Source of the DNA: Takakia lepidozioides
Taxonomy: Eukaryota; Plantae; Bryophyta
Direction of reading: 5' to 3'
DNA: 64,000 nt
Assembly (NCBI GenBank): GCA_030704615.1
Contig: CM060731.1
Coordinates: 82,522,001 to 82,586,000, forward strand
The number at the start of each line of letters is the position of its first letter. Position 1 is the first letter of the stretch. The position numbers and the translations under genes are program-made. Of the stretch, positions 16,428-58,046 are shown piece after piece. The notes under the pieces are model-generated. The model was not told the DNA's origin, ran no database searches, and saw only the letters and a program-made list of their open reading frames with translations.

Positions 16428-16458
16428 TTACCCCTTCCCCCCTCAAAAAGCCGTGTCC

Positions 16459-19041: not shown

Positions 19042-19253
19042 ATCAATTATTTCGGTTGAGCTGCATGGATAACTTGTGACCTTGTGACAAGTCGATCAGC
19101 TGGCTGTGGTGGTTGTGATACAGAAGTAACTTCCTCCTCCCTCTCTGAAGGTCCTGCTTCCAGTAATAGCATTCTCTGTGCTGTGTGCCCCTTCCTGACC
19201 ATGAGCTTGGGAAACATTATCATGCGGAATCCGTGAAGCCAGTGGATCCGCCA

Positions 19254-24580: not shown

Positions 24581-24601
24581 GTCCCATGTCTTTCATTTCT
24601 T

Positions 24602-25297: not shown

Positions 25298-26272
25298 GAC
25301 CTACAGCTAGTGTATCATGGGGGTGTTTCCTATTTGTTTCCCTTTTGATATTCATGTTAACTATCTTACCATTGATAATTAAGTATCAGTTTGCTTTATC
25401 AATCTATTGGATTCCATCAACTCATCCATTCATTCCACAGCTTCACTCAGATCTCTCTACACAGTGTGATTGTATCGTAAAAGTATCCGATTATGATTTA
25501 TCAGGTATCAGGCCGAAGCCATTGTGTCTCTAATCTACTCTACAATATCATTACAGCCTTGCATATATCAAGCATCTACTCATCATCTCTCTATCTTCAC
25601 TTCCGTTCTTCATCTCTGCCCGATCCCCTCTCCTCTATCACCAAGAAGTCCTCCTCCGAATGATGTCCCTCAATTCCCCGTTTCTCCCTTTATCTTCCTA
25701 TCCGCGGTTCTAACCGTTTCCCTCACTAACCGTCGTCTGTGAACTAACATGTTCCCTTCGTAGGTGTTGTTCCCCACAGTCGTTCCCTGTCCTACTTTTC
25801 GTTCCCTATGATCGTGACAGCTGTGTCAAGCTGTAACTGGCTGTGTGAAACTGTGACGGGCTGTGACTGGCTGTGCGACTGTGTTTGGTTGTGTCGGGCT
25901 GTGACTGGCTGTGTGGCTGTGCCGGGCTGTGTCGGCTGTGTCGGCTGTGTCTGCTGTGACGACTGTGACGGCTGTGTCGGCTGTGACGACTGTGTTGGCT
26001 GTGTCGACTGTGACGGGCTGTGTTGGCTGTGTCGGCTGTGTCTGCTGTGACGACTGTGACGGCTGTGTGGGCTGTGTCGGCTGTGACGACTGTGTTGGCT
26101 GTGTCGACTGTGACGGGCTGTGTTGGCTGTGTCGGCTGTGACGGCTGTGTAACCCCCCTCTACAGTGCGCTGCTGTCACCCCTAAGGCTCCTGTTGGTCT
26201 TGGTCTGTGCAAAAATTAAGGGTACCCTACAGATCCCGTATAAGTGTCTAAGTCCCCAACAGTCCTCTAACA
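25190..26272 (-). repeat. 5' LTR of D3
   Basis: TGTTAGAGG...GCGCGACA followed by TT and PBS TGGCGACC (tRNA-Arg-like 3' end, by recall). Confidence 0.95.
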
Positions 26273-26277
26273 AAGTG

Positions 26278-38075: not shown

Positions 38076-38828
38076 CTACGCCCACCAAAAGGAGATATGA
38101 CCACATATTCAAGCTTGCTTGTCAAAGCCAGAGGGATGCTCTGACCTGTGTGGAGTGATCAATTCAGCCATAGGACCTACTTCTTGCAATGAACTAAGGA
38201 TTCATGGGAACCCATGAATTCAGCATTTCATCCTACTTGAAGCGGGAATTGTTGCTATCCGTGCGCGGTGAAGATTTCAGTCTCATTCCATGGCTGAACG
38301 GCTTACAAGGAGGGTAACATCTTGGGGACTGCTGTCGAGGGCCAGTTTTCAGAAGAGTGTATGTCCCCTTGCCTTGTTCAGCATTTCTGATACAAGCAAA
38401 TGGCAGTCATGTCTTCACTATTCTCAAGCCAAGACACGGGTCCTCCATAGTTTAGGATGGTTTCAGCTCTCTACAGTTCTCAAAAGGGGTGAACTTTGAC
38501 ATTAGTCAAGTAGTGACGGAGGAGGAATGCTTATGAAGGAAATCTTCCAGGGTCTAAGCTTGTGGAAATACAAGTCTTGAAGGACCTCAATCAACTGACG
38601 ACTGCTCTATGTTGGGTTTTGGGGGAACTGTCAATAGGTGAACCCATTTCAGCATAAATGAATGCTAATGCGACGGGCAACAGGGGCGCACGCTTCTAAA
38701 ACGCTACAACCCCCAGGCAGCGACCCCAGGGAGTCGCAGCTAAAATGTGATGGGATGTGAAGCCTTAAAACAGGCCTGAAGCATATACTCCTTTCCTCTC
38801 AAGAAGCGAACTTGCACAACAAAGGGGC

Positions 38829-39357
38829 TGTCGTGCGCATACATATCGCTACACAACTACATCGCTGTCCAAACCACACCACACATATATGCACAATAAA
38901 GTAGTCTGCCACAATGATAAACAAAGCTAAAAAGGACATACACTTCCAACACAAGAAATATAAAATCCATCGCTATCACTCATTGAAACTGAAGTCGAGC
39001 CAGGGGCACCCCAAGCTATGGGGACTCCACCCCACAACAACCTGTATCCCTACATAAGCACACTAAAACCTAAACACATGCAGGAGCTCGGTCGCGCAGG
39101 CTCAACTCGAGAGAGATGAGCCACGCGACGCCGCTCTCGTGAAGATAAGGCCATTCAGGTGTCAAACTAAACTTGACACCTGATTTAACACTTGACCTAA
39201 ATCCAAGTGTTAAATACAAATAACTAGCTTTATTCTAGTTGTTTTCACACTGTGCTTATTTAACTTGACAGCTGTCGTGCGCATACATATCGCTACACAA
39301 CTACATCGCTGTCCAAACCACACCACACATATATGCACAATAAAGTAGTCTGCCACA
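38829..39357 (-). repeat. 3' split terminal repeat of element A: A(85)-GC-B(356)-T-A(85)
   Basis: The two A copies are identical. B matches 49954-50310 with one 1-bp indel seen. Confidence 0.96.
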
Positions 39358-39358
39358 A

Positions 39359-39372
39359 TCGCCCCCCTAGCT
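39359..39372 (-). promoter_or_regulatory. Polypurine tract of element A
   Basis: AGCTAGGGGGGCGA on the minus strand, followed by T and TGTGGCAG. The identical motif is at 2112-2125. Confidence 0.85.
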
Positions 39373-39615
39373 GGTGGATAGGTCCCTCTAACTCCAGATA
39401 GCTACAAGATGTAATAGCCACAGCCGTACTAAGTCCCTATCACTGTCCCTATTGTACTCAAACTCTATAGACCAAGAGGCCGGGTACAAGAGTAGCCCCA
39501 TCGTTAGTCGCCGTCTTGCAATCTGTGAACTTGAGCCAGAACCTCGTGTGTTCAAGGTCTCCTGTAGCTGGGCCTTGCGTTGCTTGTTAGCCTTCCATGG
39601 TTGTATCCACTCCCA

Positions 39616-41475
39616 CTATCCAATGCATTGTGGACATAACCAATCCCCATCCGGAACCATCTCAAGAGGTGGAGTCAAGCACCCCATATGCCAACCTCTA
39701 GAGCATCGATCACACACCAGCATGGTGGCTGCCCCTTTAGCAGACCCACACAACATGCACCTCAAACCTGCAGATACCACTGCCAGGTTTGGGTCAATCC
39801 TGCCATCGACATTCGGAAGGTGACATGGCGCACAATTACGCACATGGTCCTTCCAAGTTATGCCATCCCGACCCTCCAAGACCAAGACGCCTGAGGGCAA
39901 GACCTCTCGAACCCTCAAAATAACACGTCCTGCAGTCACATCCAGGGTCGTAGGAGCAGTCTGCTGCAGATAGACATAGTCACCAGGGTTGAATCTCCGA
40001 ACCCCAGGACGATAGCCCCCACCACGTATGGTAGCATACCTCAACGTATCACGGTGTTGTGCAATGGCAAGGTTCTCGAAAGCCATGGGCATGACTCTCT
40101 TGAACAACTCTGCACGCTGCTCACATGCACGTGCCCACACGTCCGGATCGTCAAGGTTAAGAACTGTAGCAGCTTCTCTGCGAATGGATGTAGGCAAATC
40201 CGGCTCTCGGCCAAAGAGAAGAAAGTATGGTGAGAAGGAGGCAAGTGATGCTTGCTTGCTGAACCTGTAGCCCATGGCTAACCAGGGTAACTGAAGGTCC
40301 CAATCTCCTAGGTGTCCCTTCTGCAAGCCATACTTGCGCAAACCCCTCTTTACTGTCTGAACAACTCTCTCTGCCAAGCCATCGGCTTCAGGATGATCCC
40401 GAGAAGTGGTGCGGTGGTCTATCAAGGCCTTGTCACACAAAGCCTGAAACTCCCCCAAGAACTCTCTCCCTTGGTCCGTGAGTACCTCAGCTGGAGCACC
40501 GAATCGGCTAAGCACACAATCCAGGAATGCATACGCAGCTCCCTCACTAGCCTTATCAGGCAATGGAACCAATTCAATCCACTTGGAGAAGTGCTCCACC
40601 ATCACCAACACGTACTTGTTGTGGCGCATGGTCAGTGGCAACGGCCCTGCGAAGTCAAGACTCCACCTGTAGCCCAATCCCATGATCGGAAGAGGGTGCA
40701 ATTGTGGAGTAGGGGCGTTGAATGAAGCACGCACCCTGTCACACACCATGCACCTAGCCACAAATTGTTGCACCTCTGTGTGCATACCACGCCACCAATA
40801 CTGCCCCTGCAGTAGACTATGAGTGCGTCGCACCCCAAAATGCCCCAACTCCTCATGGGCATGCCGCACTAACCGTGCCCGCTGTGTTGGGTGAGGCACA
40901 ATCCTCACTCGACCATCCTCCCACACTCGGAGCAGGTGTGTCCCCTCCCACCTGAACCTCTTGGCTCGTTGTAGGATCCGATCCCTCTCCTTGGCAGTCA
41001 TAGTGGCTGCCGTGTCTCCACTGCGGAGGTAGTCCAACACAACTGAATCCTCATGTATATCTTTGGCGCCACCCTGCTCATTGCTGGCCTCAGGGTCCTC
41101 AGACACTTGATCTACAGTCATCCCTGTTGTAGGTCCAACCTGGCCTTCCGCTGCCAAGATACACAGAAATGCAGATGCATGCCATCCGGGCACCATCTCC
41201 TCGTCCGTCTCACCATGCCACCGAGCTCCAGTGTCATCCTGCTGGCTCGTGCATGGATTGCGACTCAACCCATCTGCATTTCGATTGACCAAACCCGGTC
41301 GATGCACCACCTGAAAGTCATACTCTTGAAGGATGAGTGCCCACCGTGCAAGCTTCCCCGTAAGCTTGTCTGACTCCATCAACCACTTGAGTGGTTGGTG
41401 ATCCGTGACAAGGGTGAAGAGATTGCCGTATAATAGCACCTGAAGTGTGCCACGGCCCACACTGCAGCTAAGCAT
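39616..41475 (-). CDS. pol: Element A RNase H C-terminus, integrase and C-terminal PHD finger
   Basis: HEELGHFG...CMVC zinc domain, LDFAGP, TDQGREF, DGLAER, and C4HC3 PHD CMLC...CDRC...HMGC...WLCPQC (~39622-39760). Confidence 0.96.
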   Translation of the reverse strand: MLSCSVGRGTLQVLLYGNLFTLVTDHQPLKWLMESDKLTGKLARWALILQEYDFQVVHRPGLVNRNADGLSRNPCTSQQDDTGARWHGETDEEMVPGWHASAFLCILAAEGQVGPTTGMTVDQVSEDPEASNEQGGAKDIHEDSVVLDYLRSGDTAATMTAKERDRILQRAKRFRWEGTHLLRVWEDGRVRIVPHPTQRARLVRHAHEELGHFGVRRTHSLLQGQYWWRGMHTEVQQFVARCMVCDRVRASFNAPTPQLHPLPIMGLGYRWSLDFAGPLPLTMRHNKYVLVMVEHFSKWIELVPLPDKASEGAAYAFLDCVLSRFGAPAEVLTDQGREFLGEFQALCDKALIDHRTTSRDHPEADGLAERVVQTVKRGLRKYGLQKGHLGDWDLQLPWLAMGYRFSKQASLASFSPYFLLFGREPDLPTSIRREAATVLNLDDPDVWARACEQRAELFKRVMPMAFENLAIAQHRDTLRYATIRGGGYRPGVRRFNPGDYVYLQQTAPTTLDVTAGRVILRVREVLPSGVLVLEGRDGITWKDHVRNCAPCHLPNVDGRIDPNLAVVSAGLRCMLCGSAKGAATMLVCDRCSRGWHMGCLTPPLEMVPDGDWLCPQCIG

Positions 41476-42749
41476 TCTCCCTCATATGAGCTATACTTAG
41501 ACTCTGCAGCATTGTTCGAGCGGCTAGCATAAGCCACTACGAACTCTCTTCCCTCATCATCCACCTGTGTGAGCACCGCTCCAAGCCCCAGCATGCTCCA
41601 ATCTGTATGCAGCTGAAAAGGACGCCCCCTGATAGGTCGTCTCAAGATGGGCGCCGAGGTCAACCTCGCCTTGAGCTCTTGAAAAGCTTGTTCTTGCTCA
41701 TCTTCCCACTGCCACTCCTGGTCCACCTTGGTCAGCTTGGTTAGAGCCTTTGCAATGGCACTAAATCCCTTAACAAACCGTCTGTAATAGTTTGCTAACC
41801 CCATGAAAGCTCGAACTCGGCTCACATCCGTGGGGCGTGGAACCTGTGCAATGGACTCTACCTTAGTCTGCTGTACCCCCAATCCTCCAGGATATATCAT
41901 GTGACCCAGATACTCAATCTGGTTGTGGAAAAACTTGCACTTGCCCGGATGTAACTTCAATCCGTGCGTCCTCAAGCGCTCAAATACCCCCTGAAGGTGT
42001 CTCTCATGCTCCTCCACCGTAGCACTAAAGATGATGATGTCATCTATGTAGCACCGAGCAAACTCCACCCCTGCTAGAATCCTGTCCATGACTCTTTGAA
42101 ACTCAGCGGGAGCGTTTTTAAGCCCAAATGGTAAGAACCGCCACTGGTATAGGCAATCCTTCCCGTGCTCATTGATCCCCCAGAATGCCGTCTTTTGCTT
42201 ATCCGCCTCCTTGATCGGCAACTGGTGATATCCGGATCGTAAATCCAACGTGCTAAAGACCTTGGAATGCCCAATGGCATCAAAGATCTCCTCTGGTGTT
42301 GGCATGGCATACCTATCGGACTTGGTCTGACGATTTACAGGCCGGTAATCACCGCACATACGTCTCTCCGTCCAATTGCCATAGACATCCTTCTTAGCTG
42401 GCATCACTGTGGCTGAAGCATACTCTCCACCAGAGAGCTCCACCAAACCTGCCTCCCAGAGATCTTGAGTCCTCATCTGAATCAAAGACCTCTCCATGTC
42501 ACTGTATCTATAGGGTCTCCGAAAGATTGGCGTGTCAGTGGCCAACTCAATACGGATCTCTTGACCCTTCAGTGCTCCCAAGTCCTTCAAACTGAAGGCA
42601 AAGCAATTCCTGTAAGCCCTCAGGAACCGCCGTATACGTCGTCTCTCTCCTCCGGTGACAATGGGTCCAATATCAGGCTCCCAATTGTCCTCCGTAACTG
42701 CAACCTTAAGTCCAGTGGGCTTAGAGGTAGAGGACGCGTCCCGTGGTTG
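41379..42749 (-). CDS. pol: Element A reverse transcriptase and RNase H, in frame with the upstream ORF across one TAG
   Basis: LDLRSGYHQ, LPFGLKNAP, YIDD, HTDWS and YEGECLA motifs. Confidence 0.96.
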   Translation of the reverse strand, partial: QPRDASSTSKPTGLKVAVTEDNWEPDIGPIVTGGERRRIRRFLRAYRNCFAFSLKDLGALKGQEIRIELATDTPIFRRPYRYSDMERSLIQMRTQDLWEAGLVELSGGEYASATVMPAKKDVYGNWTERRMCGDYRPVNRQTKSDRYAMPTPEEIFDAIGHSKVFSTLDLRSGYHQLPIKEADKQKTAFWGINEHGKDCLYQWRFLPFGLKNAPAEFQRVMDRILAGVEFARCYIDDIIIFSATVEEHERHLQGVFERLRTHGLKLHPGKCKFFHNQIEYLGHMIYPGGLGVQQTKVESIAQVPRPTDVSRVRAFMGLANYYRRFVKGFSAIAKALTKLTKVDQEWQWEDEQEQAFQELKARLTSAPILRRPIRGRPFQLHTDWSMLGLGAVLTQVDDEGREFVVAYASRSNNAAESKYSSYEGECLAAVWAVAHFRCYYTAISSPLSRITNHSSG

Positions 42750-44717
42750 CTATGCTGCAACCTCTTGAGCAGTACCCCCTTCCTGCTCAGTCAATGACAA
42801 GGCCTCATCCTGCCCCATCATCTCATCATTGAGAACCTCCTCATCCCGAGAAGAATCCCCAACCTCATCCATCACAGCTGCCTTCGCTGCCAACTCCCTC
42901 TGAACCTCGAGCACCTCCCACATGTGCCATGGATGTCTACACCTCGTGGTCCTCACCGGCTCGCCCCCACTCGCTGCCTGTACCGTCTCGGTAGGCAGAG
43001 AGACCATCAAGGGAAGTGCACTCCGCACTCTACGTTGCTCAGCCATAGCCAAGCTGACAATCCAGGTCAAGCAATTGAGATCCATTGCTTGCCCCAACAC
43101 CTGACGACGTGATGCCTCAGAAAGAGAAGGCACCGCCGTGGTCCCAGTGGAAAACCCCATAGCCCGCTCTCGCTCGTCGGCATTAGGCTCCACTAACTGC
43201 TGCAACTGAGCATCCCACAGGAGGCCAGGTCCACCATCCCGAAAAGCATGGGATCCTGGGAAGCTGAGCAGTGTAGGTAATGCTGCTCGTGGTTGACCCA
43301 CCCTGTTGACCACTGCCAAAGGCGAACGGTCATCGTGTCTCACACGTTGAGACTGCCTTCCTGTGTCCAAAATGCCATCCACGGTGAGGTGTGCTGGCCG
43401 CTGCACCCCATCAAATGCACGCTTGAGCAGTGCGGGTGGCATCAAGTTAGTCCACCATAGTCGTGGACGATGAGCCCGTGACCCCACTGCAGCTGCATCC
43501 AGCAACACTGCTGACCCAAGCCACGACCGGACTTGATGCACACTGGCCATCACCCTGGCCCGAGAATCACCCATCAGTGGCACATTCTCCAAGATGTATG
43601 CCGGAGATACAGCCTGATGAAGCTGCAAGTGGCGCAAAATCCGCACCATCTCCCAAAACAGACCCGTCCTCGAGTCTCGCAATCCATTGCCATGCCCGGC
43701 TGATGAATGCCCTTGGCAGGGCCAACCTGCCACTACCAGATCAATGGAGCCAACCCGCTCCAAATCCTGCGCCCCCAGCAACGAAATGTCTGCTGGCAAG
43801 GCCTGCTGATATCCACGAACTGCAGACACCTGCAACAACTCAGGGTGCTGCTGCACCATCTGAGCAACATGGCGCAGTGAGACGCGTCGTGCAGTCTCAT
43901 CCCTCTCCACATACAGGTAACGTCGAACTCGTACACCTGCCTGCAGCACTGCAGCCAATCCAGTGCTGATCCCGCCAAATAAGTCCAGAAGGCATATGCC
44001 TTCATCCGGTCGCTGCCACACAAGAGGTGTGGTGTCCAATGGCGACAACTGAGGTGGCCCTGGTGCAATCACCGCACTCTCCTCCTCTCCTGACGGTACA
44101 AAAGCTTCTACCCAAGCTTGTTGCACCCGTCCATCAGCAGCGTGCTGCAAATCCTTGCTCGTACCCCACAACGGAGTGTGAGCAACCATGGCAGGCAACT
44201 CCGCCGTACCATGCATGTCATCCTGCTCTGCTGGAGGTGGCACATCCTCTGCATGGGCATTGCCTTCCAGCAACTCTCCAGGCCAACTAACTGCAGCTGT
44301 GAAGGCGGCTAGTGTTGGCATCTTGCCCCGCTGAGCAGCTGCAATACCCCCAATGAATGTCACAGGGAGCTGTGCACGGCGACCATCCCCTGACTGCCAT
44401 CCAGGCCTGTAGGATGCTGACTCCTCCCAGAAATCCAGGGTGAAGCCCATGGGGTATAACACTGCCCCACCAACGAGGACATCGTAAGAGACCGCGTCTG
44501 TCACAATGGCCTTGGCTCGCATCACTGAGCCATCTACAGGATGATCCGGCTGCAGTCTAATAGCCAACTGATGCCGTGTCATGCCGCGAGCCTGCTCTGA
44601 TCCTCCCAGAGATGTCTGTATCTGGAAAGGACAAGGCTCCATATCCGCCTCCATGAGGCCCAAACCTGCAATAGCAGCTCTGCCCAACATCAGTGGCTGA
44701 GCTCCTGAGTCCAACAA
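42750..44717 (-). CDS. Element A aspartic protease plus DNMT3-like C5 cytosine methyltransferase (~43050-44000)
   Basis: LLDSGA protease; MTase motifs I LDLFGGISTG, II YVERD, IV AGWPCQGHS, VI LENVP, VIII RAHRPRLWWTN, IX ERERAMGF and X RRQVLGQAM, in unpermuted order. Confidence 0.93.
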   Translation of the reverse strand: MLDSGAQPLMLGRAAIAGLGLMEADMEPCPFQIQTSLGGSEQARGMTRHQLAIRLQPDHPVDGSVMRAKAIVTDAVSYDVLVGGAVLYPMGFTLDFWEESASYRPGWQSGDGRRAQLPVTFIGGIAAAQRGKMPTLAAFTAAVSWPGELLEGNAHAEDVPPPAEQDDMHGTAELPAMVAHTPLWGTSKDLQHAADGRVQQAWVEAFVPSGEEESAVIAPGPPQLSPLDTTPLVWQRPDEGICLLDLFGGISTGLAAVLQAGVRVRRYLYVERDETARRVSLRHVAQMVQQHPELLQVSAVRGYQQALPADISLLGAQDLERVGSIDLVVAGWPCQGHSSAGHGNGLRDSRTGLFWEMVRILRHLQLHQAVSPAYILENVPLMGDSRARVMASVHQVRSWLGSAVLLDAAAVGSRAHRPRLWWTNLMPPALLKRAFDGVQRPAHLTVDGILDTGRQSQRVRHDDRSPLAVVNRVGQPRAALPTLLSFPGSHAFRDGGPGLLWDAQLQQLVEPNADERERAMGFSTGTTAVPSLSEASRRQVLGQAMDLNCLTWIVSLAMAEQRRVRSALPLMVSLPTETVQAASGGEPVRTTRCRHPWHMWEVLEVQRELAAKAAVMDEVGDSSRDEEVLNDEMMGQDEALSLTEQEGGTAQEVAA

Positions 44718-46950
44718 GACCCGCAGTGGCCGGTACTTCTTGCTGCCGGTCCACTCAAAGTGAAAATGCCTCCCTGGTTGTCTAACAAGACAACTCCAGG
44801 TGTCACCATGGCGCGCTCAATGGCTGGCCTAGCTGGCAGCTCCGTCAATCTGGCAGCTGCAGCTTGCCAGGGCGCTGCCGTGGCAGTCTTGACCCTCAAA
44901 TCCGAGGATCCCTCTGCCACTACACCTTCCACTAACTCCGCAGAAGATGAAGTGACCTCCCCACTCTCGCAGAGTGTTGCTGCTAGTCTGAACACTGCAG
45001 CTGGTCTCACTCCCGGCGTCGCAATCATGGTTGCCGAGAACAGTGGGGCTTGACACACAGAGGTGGCTGCCCCCAATAACACACCGGCCGCACTAGCCTT
45101 GGCAGCAGGAGTCAATGCTGCACGTGTAGCTCTCCCCAATGGCATAGTAACCTCCGCCTCGGTAACAGTCGGGCGAGAACTAGGTGCCATGGATGGCGTT
45201 GACACTGTCTCCGCCAAGGTGAATGACTGAGGCAGCCTTGCCTGACGGCTTGCCTCCCCACGTTGTGGATCCAACTCCACCTCTGCACCTCGTGGCTCAG
45301 GAACTCGTGCTGCTCCTCGAGTCACGGCTGCAGCAGACTCCACCTGCTCTAATGGTAGTGCTGCTCCGCACATAAATCCCATGCCTCCCATATCTCCTCC
45401 CTCAGGAGCAGGAGGTGGACCATCCCGCCTGGGAGCCGGTACCGCCTGAGCTATAGCCATGGCAGCGAGCCTCTGCTCTAGCTGCTGAAGCCGGTTGGCC
45501 ATGCCTTGATCAACGCCCTGACCTCCACGTCCTTGGCCATGTTGAGCTTGCCCTTGGCCTGCACCTCGTGCCCGACCACCTCGTCCTCTTTGGGCTGGTC
45601 CACCTCGCCCCCGGCCACCATTGTTCCCTTGGAACTGGCCTGGGCGCAACTCAGGATGCAAGTCATAACACTGGGCATCTCCATGCCCATACTTGCCACA
45701 ATGCCCACACTGCAACTGTGCAGGCTGTGCTTGTGCCGGCCTTCTGCCACTCTCTGGGCAATCTCTCTTGACATGGGGTCCTCCACATGTCCAACATATC
45801 ACCCCTGGTTGCTGTTGGCCTGCAAAAGATGCCACGGGCCTTTGCACCTGAGGCCCCCTGTAAGCTCCATGGAACTTGGGCTGGGCAACCTTGCCCCCCT
45901 GACCACGCTGTTGGGCAGTCCCTTGTGCTTGTGGGCTGACAGCTGTGCCCCGTACAGGCATGTCCTTGCCAAATCCAATTGTAACAACTCGTTCCTCCAC
46001 CATGTTGAGCTCAATCCGCTCAGCCAGCAGAAACACATCTGCTAATGTGGGTTGGGCTGCTTGTAACAGGGTTGCATCTCGCACCCTTCTCTTGAGCTCC
46101 TTGTCCAGAATTCCATACCAAAACTGGATTGCCTGAGCTTCAGTAACCCCTTGGGTCACACTTATCAAGCGCCTCATACGAGTGTACGCCTCTCGCAGGC
46201 TCTCACTGGGTTTGCGCTGGAAGTCTTGCAAACTTCGCAGCTTCTCTGTCCGTACACCTTGGTAGTTCCTTCGCAACTCCTGGAAGAACTCCACCACCGG
46301 GTTGAATCTAGGCACATGGGTTGTAGCTGTGGCAGGAGGAGTAGTAGCACCTTTGAACTGGTACCACCTGCAGAAGTACCAGCACTACCTGCTCCACTAC
46401 TAGTGCTGGCAGTGGGAGCTATTGGTACTGATGCAGCTACTGGTCGCGTCATGCCTCGAGTAATGGAGATGTAGTCAGGTGACCAATACATCCTCCACTC
46501 CTCAATCTCTGCTTCATGTCCTCGCCTGAACTCGTGGTAATCGTCCATAGGCGGGCCTTCCAAATGCTGGAACAGTCCCTTCCACGCCATGAATGGGGTG
46601 AATAGATGTGGATTGCGCATCTGCTGCAAATCACACCAGCTGTCGAACTCCTGGATAAAGTCATCCAACTCGATTGTGCCCACAGCTCCAGAGTACCTAC
46701 GAGGCCCCTTGGTAGCTCCATACATCTCCTCCATGTCGTCCCACAACAATGGCGAATGAAAGTGCACACCTGTTGATGAAGCCTCCGAGCCTGTGTCTGA
46801 CTCTACAGTAATTGAGGGTGGCGGTGAAGGTGGTCTGAACCGAATACCTCGTCTTGTGAACCCACTCTCACTGTTACTGCCTGTAGCCGTACTCCCCTCA
46901 AAACCCTTGGGTAACTCCGTAATGACACTCACAATGTGCACCTCCTCCAC
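44690..46950 (-). CDS. gag: Element A Gag (capsid, two zinc knuckles, RG-rich region); one apparent 1-nt frameshift at ~46350
   Basis: RYSG..ELDDFIQEFDSWCD, FQRKPSESLREAYTR, CWTCGGPHVKRDC and CGKYGHGDAQC. Confidence 0.9.
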
Positions 46951-47469
46951 GTGACACTATAAGGTTCTAGTACTAATCTAATAGTGACACGGGTGGGCAC
47001 CTGTTGCAGTCTAAGGGTCATATCCCAATGGCTCAGGGCACCTGCACCTGCATCCACCGCAAGAACTCCTATGGTTGGCTGGTCATCAACCCAGCCTCAC
47101 CATAGAAGAAACACTGGTGGTCTTGCTGGTCATCACTCCAGCCTCACCACCGACAGCATACTCTAGGATTGACCGGTGATCAAATCCGGCCTAATCCCTA
47201 TGAAAGCAAGCGCCCACACAAAACCAACATGGCGCACAGTCAAGCATGCAGGTGTTGGGGGGGATCCAAACACAAGAAATCAAAACATCAACACCCCCAC
47301 ACCAAAATCCAGCAGCAACGCTGATCCTGCAGAATATCCCAGCCCAAAACCCCGGACTGACTGGCCTCCACCAAGAGAGGCTTTGGCAACTACAAGTATA
47401 AGGTAATGAAAATAGTACAGAGATGGAGGGGAAGAATAGAAGCCCGACCAAGCAAGATCTAATCCTGAT

Positions 47470-48219
47470 CTATGCTATCAACTGCCAGACTTCTCTCAAA
47501 GTGCCTCGCTCTGCATGATGGTAAGGTGTAGGAGGTATATCTATGTCCAGAAACCTGCCACTAACCTTGTCCCAAGCTACAGTAGCTCGCTCTAACCAAC
47601 CCTCCTCCTCTTTCTGCCAGGTAGAGACAAAGCAATACTCCCCTATCTCCCGCTCACTGAACACTAAAGAAAACAAAGGTAGGGTCTGATAGTCTCTCAA
47701 CTCGAAAGCTTTGAGACGGTTGCGGGTGTCCTCATTGCGAATGACTGCATCTCCTTCACGCACAACAAACATGTCATTGCTGATGAACCCCCGCTCATGG
47801 TTGCCCTGTGCAGAGCGTATCCGGCTGCAACCATGTCTGATTGCACAAACTTGTGTAGCTCCTGCTCCTCTGCTCCAGTACACCACGGCCTTGTGACTGA
47901 AAACCTTGGTCCCCGGGGCTGTCTTTGGCTGTGTTCCAAGCCTAGCTTTCACCCACTTTGGTATTTCACCTACAGCTGCAGAACTGCTGGCTCCAACAGA
48001 GTTCTGACTGTCCAAGGCAATATTGAGGCCCTCAATGCCAACTACAGCAGTCTGTTGTCTACTGCTAATGCCTGACTCCCAGTATGCAATCAACTCGTCC
48101 AACTGTTCTCCACTCAAATCAGTCTGAGTTCCTTGGGAAACATAAATCCTGTCCCCTTGTGTGCACAGGCTAAGAGAAGAGACCTGCCCTTCAATTACGT
48201 CCTCATTTCCCCCAGCCAT
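47470..48219 (-). CDS. Extra ORF (249 aa) in the 5' leader of element A, function unknown
   Basis: ATG-started open frame, sense to gag, inside the TSD-bounded element. Confidence 0.55.
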   Translation of the reverse strand: MAGGNEDVIEGQVSSLSLCTQGDRIYVSQGTQTDLSGEQLDELIAYWESGISSRQQTAVVGIEGLNIALDSQNSVGASSSAAVGEIPKWVKARLGTQPKTAPGTKVFSHKAVVYWSRGAGATQVCAIRHGCSRIRSAQGNHERGFISNDMFVVREGDAVIRNEDTRNRLKAFELRDYQTLPLFSLVFSEREIGEYCFVSTWQKEEEGWLERATVAWDKVSGRFLDIDIPPTPYHHAERGTLREVWQLIA

Positions 48220-49941
48220 GCAAGGAGTACATCCACAGATTTGTCTCTCATATAGACCAGCACAGGTTCTAGAGACAGGATTGTGGATCTTTTATGGCCC
48301 ACTCACACTCTAAAAATTCCATAGATTTTTAGCAGAGTCCCAAAAACAGAAACCAGGTCTAGGTAGGTAGATTTCCCCTTTCTGCAGCTATCCCCCCAAA
48401 AACTGAGTCAAACAGAGCCCATATGACAAAGATATGACCAATTAGGCTCTAAATCATTCGAATTAGATCAAAAAGGCTTTTTTTTTTTTTTTTAACACCA
48501 AAACGTTCTCGCCATTAAAAACTGTTCCCATGTTATCTACGGGTTGATCTGTCGGATAAGTGATATCCACACTTGTGCCCTCCGTTCCCTGCAGGTTCCC
48601 GATTTTCCATCTGAACAGCCCGTCTCGAGTTCTCCACACATGGGCGGGTCTTGGGGAATTACGATGAATACAATGGCACGCTGAAGCTCAGCAGCAGGTA
48701 GACAATGTGTCCATTAATGTAAAGAGCCTGGCAGATCGACAGTTTGAAACGATCAATGCTTCATCTCCTGTTATGCCATTCGCATCAGCATGCCGTAGAT
48801 TGTCTGTCAACCAATATCCGAGTTCAATTGTCCAAGCAGAAATCTACTAGAAATCTACCAACCGGCTACTGATTCCATAAATACTGGCAACTCCCATTCT
48901 GGATCTGTACTCAATGGATCAGTATAGAGTGGCTGCCCTTAGGGCGCGCTTCATCCCAACCAGGGTAATCTGCACTGAAGCCGAGATGACACTTGAAGCG
49001 GCTGCTTCCACAATGCTCCCTCTTTGGTGCATTCATCGTGCTAATCTAGCACTGCCCAAACCACGCCACAAACTCTCGTTGGTGCAGGAAATATGGCTGC
49101 CGCATTGCAGGTCTCGGGTCAGGCTCTCCATATCCTAGGCGTGCATATTGCTGCTGATATTGGGGCTGCCTTCAAATTGACTGCCAATAGGCCCGAACCT
49201 TAATTGCGCACTTGCTAGAAAATCTAGCCTGACCCCGTCCATCCATTTGCTTGCTTCCTCGCGATGTGCAGCCAGACAACCTCACATCAACCAGCCCACA
49301 ACCACTCCTTCATGGTGGCTGGACTATAGTCGCACACCGACTTCCCACCCATTGCTAGTAACCATTCCACATGAAAGCCAACGACGGCACAATCTGCCTT
49401 CATGCCAGCCTGTCCCTCCTCGCTGACCAAGAAAACCAACGATAGCCAGCCAACTTCTCAACTCGGCCTTTACTGATTGCACACCCTGATATATGCCATG
49501 AACAACTTCACCAAATCGTTTGTCATCAGTACCGATATACCATTGGGACGACGACTTGTAGACATGAGCCCATCAACCAGTCCAACACCTTGGCTGCTCA
49601 CTATGTGCAGGTCTGAAACCATCAGTCTGCTCAGGAATTACCTATAGCATGGTATTTTTATCTCTGCAGCTGAAGTCGAAGACCACGGTCCACCCACTCG
49701 CGTAACCAGCTGCACCTCCGCTTCTAACCACCAAGACAATGAAGGCTTGCATCCCAGCCTTGCGAGACAACAATAATGCTGATCGTTTCACCATGCTCGG
49801 CTCTCAATCTGCCGCTCAGCCAGTGACCGTTAAAAGGAAGAATACCCATGCACTTTTGTGTTACCGCTTTCAACACACACAAAATCCACAAGTGCTAAAA
49901 ACTAATTAAGCTCACATCTTGCACTCACAGATGCAAGCTCA

Positions 49942-49953
49942 ATCTCTCTCGAG
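49942..49953 (-). promoter_or_regulatory. Non-tRNA (self-priming) primer-binding site of element A
   Basis: CTCGAGAGAGAT abuts the 5' repeat and is perfectly complementary to 50145-50156 inside that repeat. Confidence 0.8.
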
Positions 49954-50310
49954 TGATAAACAAAGCTAAAAAGGACATACACTTCCAACACAAGAAATAT
50001 AAAATCCATCGCTATCACTCATTGAAACTGAAGTCGAGCCAGGGGCACCCCAAGCTATGGGGACTCCACCCCACAACAACCTGTATCCCTACATAAGCAC
50101 ACTAAAACCTAAACACATGCAGGAGCTCGGTCGCGCAGGCTCAACTCGAGAGAGATGAGCCACGCGACCGCCGCTCTCGTGAAGATAAGGCCATTCAGGT
50201 GTCAAACTAAACTTGACACCTGATTTAACACTTGACCTAAATCCAAGTGTTAAATACAAATAACTAGCTTTATTCTAGTTGTTTTCACACTGTGCTTATT
50301 TAACTTGACA
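49954..50310 (-). repeat. 5' terminal repeat (B only) of element A
   Basis: Matches 38915-39270; no A segment lies beside it. Confidence 0.96.
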
Positions 50311-50999
50311 GGGCGAGCGGAAAGAGCAAGCAGTGCGCGAGAGGAGGACCAAACACACGAATCAGACACTAAGCAGCTCTCATCCAAAAACTTGTACACC
50401 CAAATCACATATACAGCAACACCTGAGTACACCGCCCTGACCTTGTGTCAGGGCGCCATCTTTATACAAAAGCCCTAACCTTAGTGGCCCGCCACGTGGC
50501 GAGGCATTATAGGCCCAAGCCCATGGTGCTGCCTTGCAGCCCTGGATCTAACGAAGGGCCAGGATCAAGCCACTAGCCTAAACTAACCCTAACCTAAACA
50601 ACATTGTAACGGATTAACGGCTTTATACACCAAAAAAATATATGATGAATGTGTATCGCCGTTTTGGATGAAACGGGTAAATCTGTGATGAGGAAAGTTT
50701 GGGGCATCACATTTGTGAAGCCTACCCCCCACGAAAAATCCTGAGCTCCGCGAAGTACAAGATAAGAAATAACAAGTAAATGTTTGGGGAGAAAATCACC
50801 CTCCACTGCTGGGTGAAAAACCTACCAAAGGAAAACCTAGCACCTGCAATTTGGGCCGAGGACAAAACCTTTGGCTAGGAAAACCGTGCAGGGAGTACAC
50901 GTGGTGACATATCATAGGTCTACAAAATGCATCAAGAGCTAGAACAAAAGGACAGAGCCGCAAGCTAACACTAATCCGTCGAGGAAGCCAATCTGAAGA

Positions 51000-53900
51000 A
51001 GATCAAGACATCATTCCACCGTACGTTCCTCCACATTGATGCACGTAAGATCAAAGACTAGCTCGGAATGCACCAGATCCGTGAGAGAAACGGGTTCATC
51101 ATGCGCGTGAACATTGAACCCCTGTGGAAGAAGGAGAGCACGTCGCCCACGTAAAAGCTCATAGATCAAGTATGGACCATCGATCTTAAGCTTAGATTTG
51201 CATGCATGCTTGCCATGCTGCAGCCGAATGCACACAGTATGTCCCACCTAAAAAAGGTTAGAATACTTGACACGCTTGTTAAAATTACGGGCTTGGGTGA
51301 GCTGAGCCTTACCAATGTTTGTCTTGGCATCATGGATGGACACCACATGCCGAGCATGAAGATCCTCAACAAAGGTCTCAAGATCAACTGGCTCAGCTAC
51401 AATAGAAATAAGAGGGGTAGAATGCTTGACACCAAAGTTGAAGCACACCACCGTGAGGAGCTGGTTACAAAACTCCTTGCCCTGATCCGTTAGTATCTCC
51501 CGAGGACACCCATGTCGCATAAGGATCTCATTGAAGAAGAACTGAGCTACAGCATCACTAGCCTTGGAACGCAAAGGCCGACTTCTACCCACTTAGTCAA
51601 GTAGTCGGTAGCAACACAAAGGTAGCTTTGACCCTTTGATGTGAGTGCGAGGGGTCCTACCAAGTCAATGCCAACACAAGCAAAAGCATGGGTGACAGGC
51701 AAAGGCTGCAACTCATACAAGATCCAGGCCCTAGGGAGAGCAATGTTAGCACGACAACCTTCACATTTAGAGATGAACTCGGTGACGTCTCGGTGAATTC
51801 CCAGCCAATAGTATACCTCTTGGATGCGGGCCACAGTTTTCTTGATACCAAGGTGACCTGCATACAAGGAACAATGGAAACGCTCCAATAAAGCATTCAG
51901 CTGGCTCCGTGGTGGCACCTCCAAGTAGCATGACACTCCTCCTCTAGTGAGCTCCTTGAAAAGCTTATCACCCATAAAAACGGTGAGTAGACACATGATA
52001 GAGAATTTGTTTACGCAAGGACTCGGAAAGGTCAGCTGGCGAACGCCCTGATTGGCATTGCTGGAGTAGCGCAGCATGTAGCTGATTATCCATGACTGCA
52101 CTACACAAAAAAGGTAGACAATGGGTTTTAGAGAAGGTGGTCTGGAGTGCCTGCACCTATGATCTCCAGCCAGGGATACCTTCACCTCATTTGTTACTAC
52201 TCATGGACAGCCAAATCAGGCTTTGAGGCTCAAGCCAATAGTCACACCGGAGTGCAGTAGCCGAAAACACAACAAACTCGGGAGCCTATGAAAGAGAAGG
52301 ACTAAAACACAACAAGGAACTTCCACCAAATCTTGTCCGAATTCTCGCGAAGCGATAGAGCCACCACACATGCTAACACATGAATGAATCAGCCAGGATC
52401 ATCCAATAGGCTGGACCAGCCCCAAGTAGACAATATGCCATGGGAATCCAGGGCCAAGGGTTGCTGATCTGCACAAAGAAGGTTGAGAAGAGGGGCAGCA
52501 TCAGCAGCAACAAGGTCATCCAAGGTGGCATAGGCCTGCTGACAGGAGGATCAATCCGTGTAAGTGCATCAGCATTCATGTTTTCCTTGCACTTCTTGTA
52601 GACTATATCCATGTCAAACTCCTGTAGGTACATAGCCCATCGAGCAAGCCTGCCATGAAGTTCCCTAGGCTTAACAAGAGCTTTTAGTGGAAGATGATCA
52701 ATCTCTACTACAAACCGGCTACCATGCAAATATTGCCGAAAATGCTTCACCCCAAAGACCAGGGCCAGACCCTCCTTATCAGATATGGAATAATTCCTTT
52801 CATGACGATCTAGACGACGGGATGCATAAGCTATGACATGCTCCTTGCCTTCTACAACTTGACATAAGATTGCAGAGATGGCAACATCAGATGCATCAGT
52901 CTGAAGCAAGAAAGGTAACTCAAAGTTGGGAAACATCAGGATGGGAGCTGAACACAAGGCCTTGCGAAGGGTGTCAAAAGCAGCCTGCTGGGAGAAGGTC
53001 CATTCAAACCTGGCATCTTTGCACAATACCTTGGTCAGAGGGTGAGCAAGCTTAGCAAAGTTCTTTATGAAGCGCCGGTAATAAGAGGCAAACCAAGGAA
53101 GGATTTGATACAATGTTTATCCCTGGGGATAGGAAAGCCCCAAACAGACTCAAGCTTGGCAGGATCAGGAAGCAATCCATCTTTGGACAGAATATGGCCA
53201 AGGAAGTGTAGCTCAGGCATGAATAGTTCACATTTCTTGGGCTTCACTTTAAGGCCTGCAGTGCACAATTTGCTGAAGACACGCTGCAGATCAGCCAAGT
53301 GACCATCAAAGCTGGCTGAACATTGATATCATCAACATAAATTAAAGCACACTCCTAGCGAAGATTGCCCAAGACAATGTCCATGAGACGTTGGAAAGTA
53401 GAGGTGGCATTGCACAAACCAAAAGGCATGGTCTCATATTGGTACTTACCCATACGACACACAAAGGAGGTCTTTTCCTTGGCTACTTCAGTAAGAGGAA
53501 CTTGCCAAAAGCCAGATGCAAGATCAAGAGAGGAGAAAATTGTAGCACCATGTAGTTGATCCAAGGTCTCATTTATCCTGGGTAGAGGGTAGGCATCTTT
53601 TTTTGTGATGTCATTCAGCTTTCTGAAGTCAACACAGAAACGGGTTGTGCCATCTTTCTTTCCAACTAAGACAATTGGACTAGCCCAAGGAGAAACTGAA
53701 GGTTTAATCACACCAGCATCAAGCATCTTCTGGATTTCTTCTTGGATTATGGTACGTTCCTTGACACTCTCTCGGTAAGCAAATTGTTTAATAGGAGCCC
53801 CTTCAGTGACAATGTCATGTTGAAGAATAGGAGTGCGCCCTAGGTCAGTGGATCCCAAACTGAAAATATCTAGATTATTTGCGATAAGCACTTCCACCTT

Positions 53901-54083
53901 CCTCCTTTGTCCAGAGGAGAGAGTTGTGCCTAACTTGATTTCAGATAAAACTTTGGTGAGGGCCTTCTTACCTCCCAGGCTGAGACCAGGAACAGGTGGT
54001 GGTGCAACTGCAGCAAAGACAACAACCGCATCTAAGGGGCCATGTTGGATGCCAATGGCCTCAAGACCAAAACCAGCCTGCAC
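51000..54083 (-). pseudogene. pol: Element C pol: RT, RNase H and integrase, multiply frameshifted
   Basis: SPWASPIVLV.KKDG..RFCVDFRKLN, MPFGLCNA, LQTDAS, GHLG...CEGC, IDLVGP, TDQGKEF and GPY motifs. Confidence 0.92.
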
Positions 54084-54224
54084 CTCTTGTATGTCAGCAA
54101 TGGGAAGAGCAGTGATGCGAACCAGAACCTACCCCTTTTTAATAGTCACAGGGAAGCGTTTAGGATTAGCAATCTGGATCTTAACCTCTTGTCTATATCC
54201 ACTATCACCAGTCACTACAACAGA

Positions 54225-54382
54225 CCGCGGTAGTTATGACTGCCAAACCGTGGTAGTCATGGTTTTCATGACTTTGACCATGACTGCACCATGTTTTTAT
54301 ATGAAATTGACCTCCCGTAGTCGTTCATACGACTGTAGTCATATAAACGACTATCTAAGTAGTCGTCTGTGTGACTACATGG
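54225..54382. mobile_element. Small AT-richer insertion with GTAGTC/GACTAC sub-repeats (MITE-like relic)
   Basis: Interrupts the element C reading frame and has imperfect inverted ends CCGCGGTAGT...ACTACATGG; no clear TSD. Confidence 0.5.
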
Positions 54383-54599
54383 CTCCGGAATGGGCGGAAG
54401 GCTGGTCAACGGCAATCAATCTCCTCCAACCCTCAACTTCTAAGAAATGAGTAGCGGGACACAGGAAAGCCAGACCAGACTTGACCACCCTTTGGGTCAA
54501 GGCAGGGATGGTGATGTTGAGAGGTGCACGAATTAGAGTAGTATTCTTTGGAATAGCTATGGGCACCCCTGTCCTATCCCTAGCACCAGGAACATGCCA

Positions 54600-56111
54600 C
54601 TGATATAAGAGTTGAAGATCAGGCTGAAACTTGTAGAAATCATTCCATTTGAGGTTGGAGTGAGAGTTCTGCTGGAGTGAGAGTTCTGCCATTTTAAGAT
54701 TAATTTCTGCTAATATAGTCTTGTCATCAACAAAATGACGCCGCTGAGCCCAATTCTGAATAGTGGAAGGCAACCCAAGGAGAAAATACCTTTTAACCAT
54801 ACGATCCCTCTCTACCGGGTCTATGATGTTTTCAACAGCAGCAAACTTAAGATCCATGTAATATTTCCACAAGGATTCCCCAGGTTGGTAAGTCCTGGCC
54901 AAAAGCTTGGTAAAGCAATCCAGAGGCCTCTCAGGAGGTTTGAACAAGGTCTTAGCCCATTCCACCAGAGTTGCCCAGTTGAGGCTGGGATCATCCATCA
55001 CGGCTGCATGCAGTAAGTCACGAGCTGGTCCTTTCATACTCATCCTAAAGATCGCCATCTTGAAATTCTCAGGCACCCCACTGACACTAGCAATGACCTC
55101 AAACATCTGAAGATATCTATCAAAGTCTTCTCCCATTGTGTATTCTAGATAAGGTCGAGTGGTCAGCTGGGGGATTAGATGACAAGGTAGGCTATGGTTG
55201 ATATGACCAGGTTCACATTATTATGACTGACTGATCTTATAGCAGTTGAGGCTGACAGACGTGGCGCCACCGTGCCCATGGGAAGAGCAGGTATTGCCAC
55301 ACTTGGCTGAGCAGCAAGGTTAGTAGACTGCAAGTGGGTTTGTGGCATGCCACTCATGGGAAGAGTGGATGCCACTCCCACCGGCTGTGTTGACACATAT
55401 CGGATACTGCTAAGAGGGATATTGCTAGCATGCATACCTATGGACTGGCTAGAGACAAGATGTGGTGGCACCCCAACCTGTGCAGCAGGGAGAGCCCCCA
55501 CAGATTGACTAGCTAAGGAGGCAGAGCAGCAGGCATACTAGGGGGCCCTTGCATTATGACACCCCCACCTTGAACAACATCATGCACGTTCAACACAGGA
55601 AGACTGCCCACATGCATACCCGAATTCACAGGCAACAAGTTCCCTCCCCCGAGAGTGGGACTAGGGAAATTCACAACAGGTAGCATCCTAGGACTCAAGG
55701 TAGCACTTGGGCCGGCATACTGCTCGTAGTAGCCCATACATCCGAACCAGACCCTTCGATCCCCTGGTCATGAGGAGGATGGGAGGGCAGAATGTGTAAT
55801 TCCCTAGCCAGCATAGGCTCAGTCCGTCTAGCCTCCAAGGCCTTATTACGCCGATCATAGACAGAAAGGCCCTCGAGGGTGGCTATCCCAGACTCCTCAT
55901 CAACTAATGGAATACCAGTTGGGGATTCCACAACTGCCCCCATTGTTCCAACATTCAAGAATTCATCATCACTCACCATGAAATTACCTACCTGCAGGTT
56001 GTCCGATCCCTCATTCATCTCTACCATACTTTCGGCCAGCGGTTTTCCTGCATTATTCATGGACCTCTGTCTTCCAGATCTCAACCAAGTGGTACTAGAA
56101 TCACCTAGCAT
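54600..56111 (-). pseudogene. gag: Element C gag, decayed
   Basis: GEDFDRYLQMFEVIA...LNWATLVEWAKTLF...YQPGESLWKYY..L...YFLLGLP gag signature. Confidence 0.75.
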
Positions 56112-57567
56112 GCAAGAAACAAGGTTGGATTGGAGGCATAACCTTCAAGCCGCAGGGATGTGGAGCGTGGGCCGAGTACTTGGCGAGCTGTCTTCCGGAA
56201 CCCAAGTGGAGCAATACACCACCCTCAGCACCTTGTGTGATTCTAACTCGTAAATCCCCAATGCCAGCCACTCCCAACCATCAGCTCCTTTAAGCCAAAA
56301 GCCAACACGGGTGGTGTCACCCTAGCACAGTCGAGTTTGAACAATCACTCAGTCTCTCAAACGCGCTTGGGCGAGCCACTCGCTGTGAAGCAAAGGCAGT
56401 GCCCACACCCAAGACCACTAGATCAGACGACTGTACTATCAAGGCCCCTCTCGCCAGACCATCAATTAACTGTGAATAGGTAGGTGCCAAGGCGCAAGGC
56501 CGGAGCTGAAACTGTAGTGCCCTCACGATCAAAGCCCCTGTGCCCTGTAACATTAACGACAACCAACTTCTCCCTACCACGCCAAGGCCATGATGAAGCT
56601 CTGCACTTCGAACACCAGAAAGAGGCAGATACAAACCAACTTCCAACCAGGTTAATTCACGATGGTTTAGAAAATGCGACTTGATCGCCCTGGACGGTAG
56701 ACGCTCTTCATTGCGTAGCTCAAATTCGCCTTAGCAAGCTGTCTGGCCCTGGATATCACCGCACCAGGCTCAAGCAAAGGTCGTGTGAACAGGGCCTCGT
56801 GATGACTGGTCAGTGCAGCAAGATCACCTACAACAGCTCTCTCTACATGCTCAAACCAAAGCTGATCTTCGTCACATACTTCACACAACAGATCATCTAA
56901 TTCTTGTGACAATTCAATGTCTCTCTCCAATTCGGCTGCTTGCATTCAGGGCCTGGATCCACAAAATTGTCAAAGTTATAGTAGTCCGGGTCACAGCTAT
57001 CTAGAGAGCTGTCAGACCTCTCAAACCTTGGCGACCACGCCTCTGCCTCCCCCATATCATCATAATCACTACCACCAGGAGAACCCAATGAAACAACAAG
57101 GGCTGGAATGCCAACAGCAGGCTCATGAAGAGGCGATGTCGGCAAGGCAACAATGCTAGGCCGCACGCCGTTGGTAGTGTTAGTAACAACAAGAGTGTCA
57201 ACAGGGTTAGAGACAACGGGAGGAGCAACAACAACAACACCAACAGAATGAGAAGTGGCAGTAGGGTCAGTCTCTACACTAGGATTAGCCTCGATAGCAA
57301 GTGCCACGCTAATCTGAAGGAACAGTCCCTCCCCCTCTCTGCAAGCTACACAAGACAAATCACGAACTGTAGCCATCCCCTGCAATCACACCCCAACGCA
57401 CATCGTGAGACAGCAAAATCACAGCAGCAGGAGAAAATAGGGCAAAGCGAGGAGCCGCCATCGATAACACGCATTAGCGAACCACTTAGGCAGCAGGACG
57501 TAGAGCAAATCCTGCGAAGGACCTAACTGATCCTGACAGGGCGGGCAGGATCCACCACGCCTAGAGT

Positions 57568-57586
57568 ACCCGGCGCGCCTCCACCA
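57568..57586 (-). promoter_or_regulatory. tRNA PBS of element C (tRNA-Ala-like)
   Basis: TGGTGGAGGCGCGCCGGGT directly follows the 5' repeat. Confidence 0.7.
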
Positions 57587-58046
57587 TAAAACAAGCCTGA
57601 AGCATATACTCCTTTCCTCTCAAGAAGCGAACTTGCACAACAAAGGGGCGAGCGGAAAGAGCAAGCAGTGCACAAGAGGAGGATCAAACACACGGATTAG
57701 ACACTAAGCAGCGCTCATCCAAAAACTTGTACACCCAAATCACATATACAGCAACACCCGAGTACACCGCCCTGACCTTGTGTCAGGGCGCCGTCTTTAT
57801 ACAAAAGCCCTAACCTTAGTGGCCCGCCGCGTGGCGAGGCATTATAGGCCCAAGCCCATGGTGCTGCCTTGCAGCCCTGGATCTAACGAAGGGCCAGGAT
57901 CAAGCCACCAGCCTAAACTAACCCTAACCTAAACATCATTGTAACGGATTAACGGCTTTATACGCCAAAAAAATATACGATGAATGTGTATCGCCGTTTT
58001 GGATGAAACGGGTAAATCTGTGATGAGGAAAGTTTGGGGCATCACA
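57587..58046 (-). repeat. 5' terminal repeat (b only) of element C
   Basis: 460 bp; starts TGTGATG but ends TTTTA, not CA. Confidence 0.93.

Follow-up and report, generated by a model that had tools for sequence, protein, structure and literature searches.

How does a retrotransposon come to be bounded by the two halves of a palindrome that lies inside its own long terminal repeat (LTR)? In the textbook account, LTR retrotransposons and retroviruses insert linear complementary DNA (cDNA) at the ends made by reverse transcriptase (RT), and it has been argued for decades whether LTR circles are real intermediates. The question is raised by a Ty3/gypsy-type element in Takakia lepidozioides, on the minus strand of a 64,000-nucleotide stretch of contig CM060731.1 (assembly GCA_030704615.1, positions 82,522,001 to 82,586,000; this whole stretch is the window, and coordinates refer to it). 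The element reads A-leader-gag/PR/DNMT/RT/RH/IN/PHD-PPT-B-GC-A-B, where PR is protease, DNMT a C5 methyltransferase, RH RNase H, IN integrase, PHD a PHD finger and PPT the polypurine tract. Our answer has two parts. That the integrase uses the internal palindrome, whichever the order of joining, we hold with good confidence; the fuller account, in which this DDE integrase cuts cDNA at the palindrome while the host joins the RT-made ends, probably before insertion, we favor at slightly better than even. Repeats are named by the A1...B1-A2-B2 convention, with A the long repeat (357 bp) and B the short repeat (87 bp, including the AT after the PPT); an earlier sequence-only reading used the letters in reverse, its B being our A and its A plus the junction base being our B. 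The parts of the element and its target are as follows.

38829 to 50310, minus strand: whole element with TGTC...GACA ends, 11,482 bp (repeat, end and empty-site comparison)
50311 to 50314: target-site duplication (TSD) GGGC, copy adjoining the 5' end (empty-site comparison)
49954 to 50310, minus strand: A1, long repeat, 357 bp, starting with the TGTC half of the palindrome (repeat comparison)
50144 to 50156, minus strand: predicted self-primer in A1 (A positions 155-167), with the predicted transcript start at its 5' edge
49942 to 49954, minus strand: primer-binding position, reverse complement of the self-primer, marking the RT-defined right end (complementarity)
39360 to 39369, minus strand: PPT, TAGGGGGGCG, marking the RT-defined left end
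39273 to 39359, minus strand: B1, short repeat, 87 bp, ending CACGACA (repeat comparison)
39271 to 39272: GC spacer, inside the GACAGCTGTC palindrome
39267 to 39276: intact internal palindrome GACA-GC-TGTC, GACAGCTGTC, at the B1-A2 junction, predicted integrase site
38915 to 39270, minus strand: A2, long repeat, 356 bp (repeat comparison)
38829 to 38915, minus strand: B2, short repeat, forming the 3' end; the A2-B2 joint at 38915 is a predicted end-joining scar
38825 to 38828: TSD GGGC, copy adjoining the 3' end (empty-site comparison)
57646 to 57649: empty paralogous target, GGGC once only, within the host gypsy element's other LTR (57584-58046)

The insertion is young, since A1 and A2 differ by one 1-nt indel and the B copies are identical (87/87). 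It interrupts an LTR of another gypsy element; the partner LTR of that element, 96.8% identical over 401 nt, reads through the site with a single GGGC, which makes the TSD 4 bp and places the GC spacer at neither end. The host element itself occupies 38763-58046 on the minus strand, with LTRs about 97% identical, and it is its 3' LTR that is interrupted. The inserted ends, TGTC and GACA, are the halves of GACA-GC-TGTC, which is found twice in the window (2208 and 39267), and the joint of A2 to B2 reads TTTATC-A-TTGTGGC, with one base common to both sides. The TG...CA termini and 4-bp TSD match canonical Ty3/gypsy elements (TSD of 4-6 bp), but two full LTRs bounded by primer-binding site and PPT are not found, and no copy has B-GC-A at both ends. 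The permuted repeat order and GGGC duplication that the sequence-only reading had described are thus at their places, and the empty site confirms the duplication.

Mapping the ends of related copies, we found that permuted ends are the rule of the family. JGI metagenome contigs were scanned with an alignment of the integrase C-terminus, and the best 80 of 483 confirmed loci were analyzed. A readable 3' flank is present in 55 of the 80, and after merging of shared flanks these give 22 distinct B-GC-A-B ends and 21 distinct B-only ends; the five B-only ends whose 5' end is visible are A...B. Both ends are present in 10 copies, five A...B-GC-A-B and five A...B, with an exact 4-bp TSD in six and three of four bases repeated in two (chance about 0.005 each), the TSD sequences being varied. 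Besides the window's B of 87 bp, there are three subfamilies with a B of about 97, 115 and 176 bp, and B always ends at the palindrome. All 16 distinct 5' ends (15 in the loci plus this element, leaving out one partial 72% match in L064) start at the TGTC half, and B precedes none of them, an outcome with a chance of 1.5e-5 under a symmetric model. No ordinary LTR pair was seen in any locus read and no reciprocal form among the 16 distinct 5' ends. The reciprocal form expected earlier is therefore missing, and a plain circle cut at either palindrome does not fit. Nor had it been foreseen, when a tabulation of other copies was proposed, that a second form, A...B, would prove about as common as the first.

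Of the 25 loci excluded from the 3' count, L036 shows B-GC-A-B but is cut off by its contig end, L029 and L053 are cut inside A, and in L052 A breaks off after about 47 nt. L019 carries a deletion, B is incomplete in L062 and L066, and L003 is the L002 insertion again, cut; the others are L011 and L050, nine that end too early and six with an interrupted or different 3' region. The L019 deletion runs from the end of the PHD coding part to about position 178 of A, where the predicted self-primer has its 3' edge, and is followed by the rest of A and B; it may reflect aberrant strand transfer or chance. The window holds a second copy:

995 to 2647, plus strand: second, diverged family member, 3' part, with PPT, B (2125-2211), GC, A (2214-2560) and B (2561-2647), ending CACGACA

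This copy is 78% identical in the integrase and its repeats are largely different, yet it also ends PPT-B-GC-A-B. More family pieces lie at 3669-5497, where RNase H (plus strand) abuts RT and DNMT (minus strand) at 4007/4008, and these are either an inversion or two fused fragments.

The two forms do not differ in an age proxy (Mann-Whitney p 0.30, 0.57 and 0.89 in three subfamilies) and are intermixed on subfamily trees, with 7 changes against 6.8 in shuffled data (20 copies) and 3 against 3.6 (14 copies), although two of the subfamily trees are star-like and show only that the forms are not clustered. This is as expected if both arise at insertion. Alternatively, and for the second form only, A...B could derive from A...B-GC-A-B by later recombination between the B copies, which would give the same sequence and keep the TSD; the B copies are about 450 bp apart, and assembly collapse could add cases. 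We regard this origin as rather doubtful, since A...B copies show no greater age, they are fewest in the most diverged subfamily (2/9) and their share does not track B length (10/14 at 115 bp, 9/20 at 176 bp), and the flanks showed no complete solo A-B remnant. All three tests, of age, share and remnants, are weak.

The two junctions differ in their behavior. Between B and A the spacer measures 2 nt in all 25 distinct copies (GC 10, AC 8, AT 3, GT 2, AA 1, TC 1), so that 10 have GC and 13 have transition derivatives, and it is flanked by CACGACA and TGTCR or decayed forms of these; in L050 the arms are compensatory, CCCGACA-GC-TGTCGGG. This conservation upholds the earlier proposal that the inserted ends are the halves of an internal palindrome that loses its GC. 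At the A-to-B joint, by contrast, four lengths occur among ten copies of one subfamily against one length at the B-to-A junction (leaving out L058 and L036), and variation as great is found in 5 of 603 other overlapping windows, the five lying at a single place. The bases added at the joint (A, AA, AT, AAT or a PPT-side G) match remnants of the primer site or PPT, and L058 and L061 have deletions there. From these sequences, the joint looks like one made anew by end-joining at each insertion, in line with the earlier suggestion that it is the product of joined cDNA ends. An 830-bp insert in L038 was considered as a capture at the joint and rejected, as it is a TG...CA element nested within B2, where it has a 5-bp duplication; this unrelated element, about 830 bp long, is met repeatedly within or next to family members (L023, L038, L010 and L076).

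If the palindrome is not the end of the cDNA, the ends made by reverse transcription must lie elsewhere, and they can be placed. A positions 155-167 recur after A1 as their reverse complement, a 13-nt run equaled in 0 of 200 shuffles. Nine of 12 5' ends have such a match at no more than 4/200 shuffles, 9-15 nt long in the eight besides this element, and four subfamilies use different sequences for it (the L011 match is 16 nt). This covariation of primer and site points to self-priming as in Tf1/sushi and Tcn1, and the primer-binding site is likely a self-priming site and not a tRNA site. A tRNA primer was considered; the window has no tRNA, and self-priming fits better. In a single-strand fold of A plus leader, the primer duplex is not part of the minimum-energy structure. 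A G-rich PPT precedes B1 in the subfamilies read, and PPT and self-priming site stand at the A and B ends in all of them. The positions of PPT and primer thus give B-GC-A as the RT-made LTR, so that the earlier definition of the LTR by these two sites stands in our lettering, with its primer-binding site reinterpreted. The RT-defined ends here are TGTGGC...TTATCA, but TG...CA is not kept in other subfamilies, unlike the internal palindrome: the sequences after the PPT are CGATTGTGG, CGAGTTGTGG, ATACATG or TGGTTTGG, and the A of one subfamily ends without CA.

Which enzyme could act at the palindrome is indicated by the coding content.

47470 to 48291, minus strand: extra leader open reading frame (ORF), 273 aa stop to stop, member of an unnamed protein family of about 200-240 aa
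44690 to 46956, minus strand: gag with CCHC motifs, in two frames (frame change near 46.3 kb)
42750 to 44816, minus strand: protease (LDSGA) and C5 cytosine methyltransferase (PF00145; FGGIS, GWPCQ, ENV and RPRLWW motifs), ending at a TAG CAA CCA stop
41379 to 42749, minus strand: RT (YIDD) and the first part of RNase H
39616 to 41481, minus strand: rest of RNase H (frame change near 41.4 kb), integrase (H2C2) and C-terminal PHD finger

Pfam matches follow the gypsy order, with gag (weak), C5 methyltransferase, RT, RNase H, integrase zinc finger and core, and PHD finger, and the pol order PR-RT-RH-IN is that of canonical Ty3/gypsy elements. The integrase (PF00665, PF17921) has an intact catalytic triad, D276, D336 and E371 of the last ORF, whose closest solved structures are the Ty3 (best, E 2.5e-24) and foamy virus integrases. 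The second D and the E are 34 residues apart here and in 97 of 120 homologues (36 in one, pattern unmatched in 22), whereas the spacing is 35 in a control gypsy element of the window; the 34 of the clade is one fewer than in Ty3, foamy virus and the control. The PHD finger takes the place after the integrase where a chromodomain would stand, and Pfam and structure matches include no chromodomain. A tyrosine recombinase has no Pfam match in the six element ORFs (E 0.01), and a scan of 42 ORFs of at least 70 aa on both strands (E 0.05; one ORF was scanned in both sets) gave one sub-threshold match and no recombinase, for a total of 48 ORFs. Of the earlier proposal that circularized cDNA is cut by a DDE integrase, the enzyme stands as the only integration enzyme found, while a closed circle is one possible substrate, joining after strand transfer giving the same sequence.

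Our best reading of this anatomy is that the attachment site for the integrase has shifted to the GACA-GC-TGTC of the 5' repeat. Transcription would start about 150 nt into A1, and the first 11-13 nt of the transcript would anneal to the site that follows A1 and serve as primer for the minus strand, along the lines familiar from Tf1. Ordinary reverse transcription would then yield, judging from the PPT and primer positions, a linear cDNA that has B-GC-A as its LTR on either side, with no conserved integrase site at the RT-made ends. Instead, the integrase would commit to CACGACA-GC-TGTCR of the 5' LTR, perhaps because this is the first to become double-stranded or because the leader is needed in cis. 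Nicking of each strand after CA would produce two recessed 3'-CA ends with 2-nt 5' overhangs, the shape of processed retroviral ends. Host end-joining of the unprotected RT ends would make a 2-LTR circle, which opens at the 5' LTR site to A...B-GC-A-B, and merging of the LTRs would make a 1-LTR circle, which opens to A...B. Both CA ends would be inserted with a 4-bp stagger and repair would remove the GC; the product seen in the genome has both CA ends inserted, a 4-bp TSD and no GC at its ends. The repeat for another round would be kept in A...B-GC-A-B alone.

Several observations weigh against this account. The steps before insertion are reconstructed from inserted copies. A closed 2-LTR circle would hold two identical palindromes, and the reciprocal product is absent (0/16), so that early integrase commitment has to be added as an assumption. 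Two of the 10 two-ended copies, L045 and L076, have no 4-bp TSD, and in three of the 12 5' ends (L006, L022, L040) the self-priming match is not significant. L011 and L050 read PPT-B-spacer-A and continue with leader-like sequence instead of B, probably through collapsed repeats or a one-LTR circle, and L052 and L034 end soon after the spacer. Repeats can also collapse in short-read metagenome contigs, from which the related loci come.

Once early commitment is granted, joining first and cutting first predict the same sequences. In the latter order, the integrase would insert both CA ends of linear cDNA, leaving the RT ends as a chromosomal break to be repaired afterwards, by end-joining to A...B-GC-A-B or by annealing of the two B copies to A...B, with no closed circle at any time. 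This predicts all the products, including the approximately 1:1 forms of equal age and mixed ancestry, the variable joint and truncated 3' ends (L052), and it fits the 5'-LTR asymmetry at least as well. It would, however, leave a double-strand break at each insertion, and unprotected cDNA ends would likely be joined quickly at nuclear entry; we think this order unlikely, though far from negligible.

It is still less probable that an extra template switch in reverse transcription, of the kind put forward for split-repeat tyrosine-recombinase elements, makes a linear cDNA already starting and ending at the palindrome, or that a recombinase encoded elsewhere does the cutting. The same A1...B1-A2-B2 layout in PAT, Ngaro and Viper, as far as the accessible parts of PMC4157794 describe it, would suit such a route, as would the one-base overlap of A and B in several copies, which resembles a polymerase jump, and the missing reciprocal form could be accounted for. 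Yet the palindrome has no purine tract or primer site, both signals standing at the A and B ends as described above. Varied 4-bp TSDs and spacer loss fit DDE strand transfer and not a recombinase crossover, and the 48 ORFs contain no recombinase. Finally, an accident of this copy within an otherwise ordinary LTR family, be it a single aberrant insertion, nesting of LTR pieces or misassembly, to which the two frame changes in the coding region of this copy, as possible sequence errors, might lend color, is refuted by the recurrence of the anatomy in the diverged window copy, 22 distinct insertions of three further subfamilies and the Klebsormidium element as described in part of PMC5890265, with an ordinary LTR pair in no locus read, and carries next to no probability.

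Among known systems, the closest is KnitGypsy-Dnmt3 of Klebsormidium nitens (de Mendoza et al. 2018, PMC5890265), for which the legend of Fig. 4c gives a DIRS-like repeat arrangement with Gypsy domains. As far as that source was available, it is marked by gypsy pol with a C5 methyltransferase and by A-coding-B-A-B repeats, both of which are found here, and K. nitens IN/PHD proteins (P0023, P0057, P0080) match the integrase ORF at 48-56%. The Takakia element probably belongs with it. The accessible text of that account concerns the alga only and has no TSD, palindrome, priming or mechanism; land-plant copies, the empty site, the A...B form, the missing reciprocal form, self-priming and the variable joint are added here. 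Thus, although the sequence-only reading knew of no Ty3/gypsy precedent, the layout has been printed once, in that legend, without a mechanism. Our literature search, which did not extend to subscription journals and Repbase, found no description of this insertion route, and the mechanism has apparently not been in print; a preprint (10.64898/2026.05.21.726589), in the part seen, names streptophyte Gypsy-DNMT3 only in passing.

PAT, TOC1, Ngaro and Viper have the same A1...B1-A2-B2 split direct repeats and, according to the portion of PMC4157794 available, encode a tyrosine recombinase, whereas here the integrase is of the DDE type, the TSDs are 4 bp and there is no match to a recombinase. They likely share the same logic, insertion at the internal B-to-A junction. 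With canonical Ty3/gypsy elements, as far as PMC6317226 was accessible, it shares the PR-RT-RH-IN order, PPT, TG...CA ends and short TSD, but it has no full LTR pair, its ends are not RT-defined and its D-E spacing is 34 and not 35 residues. In Tf1/sushi and plant Tcn1, the same partly seen source gives a primer site complementary to a stretch in the repeat and not to a tRNA, as here; the element differs from these chromoviruses in its PHD finger in place of a chromodomain and in its split repeats. Integrases of HIV-1 and foamy virus can cut an internal palindrome to processed CA ends (PMC1905944, PMC1180852 and PMC4372172, each seen in part). There the palindrome is the LTR-LTR junction and the product an ordinary provirus, whereas here it lies inside U3, the product is permuted and this is the only route seen in the family. 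In IS3/IS30-type insertion sequences, the inverted ends abut across a short spacer, which is lost when a DDE enzyme cuts there. These are DNA transposons whose transposase makes the junction anew, whereas here the junction is a heritable part of a retroelement LTR; IS3 transposases and integrases are related, according to the accessible part of PMC2836005. A Ginger-derived integrase was considered from the likeness of ends and TSD. Ginger DNA transposons have terminal inverted repeats of 40-270 bp and no RT in the same source, whereas only approximately 7-bp inverted arms are found here and RT is present. The element works like a split-repeat or IS3-type junction inserter but with a gypsy integrase.

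The methyltransferase (PF00145, E 6.6e-13) is found in 32 of the 80 related loci, including eight of nine full-length loci, the ninth being deleted at that place. DNMT and split ends are inseparable in these loci, and one may speculate that methylation by the element's own enzyme lies behind the site choice. The stop between DNMT and RT (42750-42752, minus strand) is kept in close relatives and is probably not decay. Both window copies have TAG CAA CCA there (42750-42752 minus and approximately 4970-4972 minus), which we take to be a leaky-stop context; among 35 loci with a match to the start of RT, 10 have a stop followed by CAA CCC/T and three a stop followed by CARYYA, the other 22 being more distant or decayed. 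Programmed read-through is thus likely from sequence context, and it would make the methyltransferase as abundant as Gag. The family of the leader ORF has 25 matches (best E 1e-37), no Pfam match and no invariant column in its alignment. It is absent from all 80 related loci, so the leader ORF is not needed for split ends. A hidden ligase was considered for it and set aside, the only lead to RNA ligase clusters being weak (Atlas, 0.84-0.85).

Elsewhere in the window, copies of another gypsy family, nested and rearranged, occupy 10700-29000, where a long antisense ORF (16459-19095) and short tandem repeats are also seen; this family served only as the DD35E control. A 500-base assembly gap (N) at approximately 34.1-34.6 kb lies outside the element. 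In a viral contig collection there were no pattern matches and no relatives. Named homologues occur in proteomes of Marchantia, Riccia, Calypogeia, Sphagnum, Klebsormidium, Closterium and Haematococcus, some of them annotated as host genes. The Marchantia models Mp4g09160, Mp6g11220, Mp8g17980 and Mp7g09570 (P0121-P0124, P0060) are 56-66% identical to element ORFs, and these four probably represent family copies that were annotated as genes.

These elements would escape surveys that depend on a pair of 5' and 3' LTRs; the REXdb survey, in the part of PMC6317226 available, used LTR_FINDER. The clade is a natural case in which every copy read was inserted through an internal site, and its short, defined substrate can be assayed directly. 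Its anatomy links LTR elements to the split-repeat recombinase elements. We give even chances to the broader claim that this clade of gypsy-derived elements, widespread in green plants, inserts only via end-joined cDNA opened at the 5'-repeat palindrome, the "dead-end" circle being its obligatory intermediate. If true, the clade would be a living model for how ordinary LTR elements turn into split-repeat ones.

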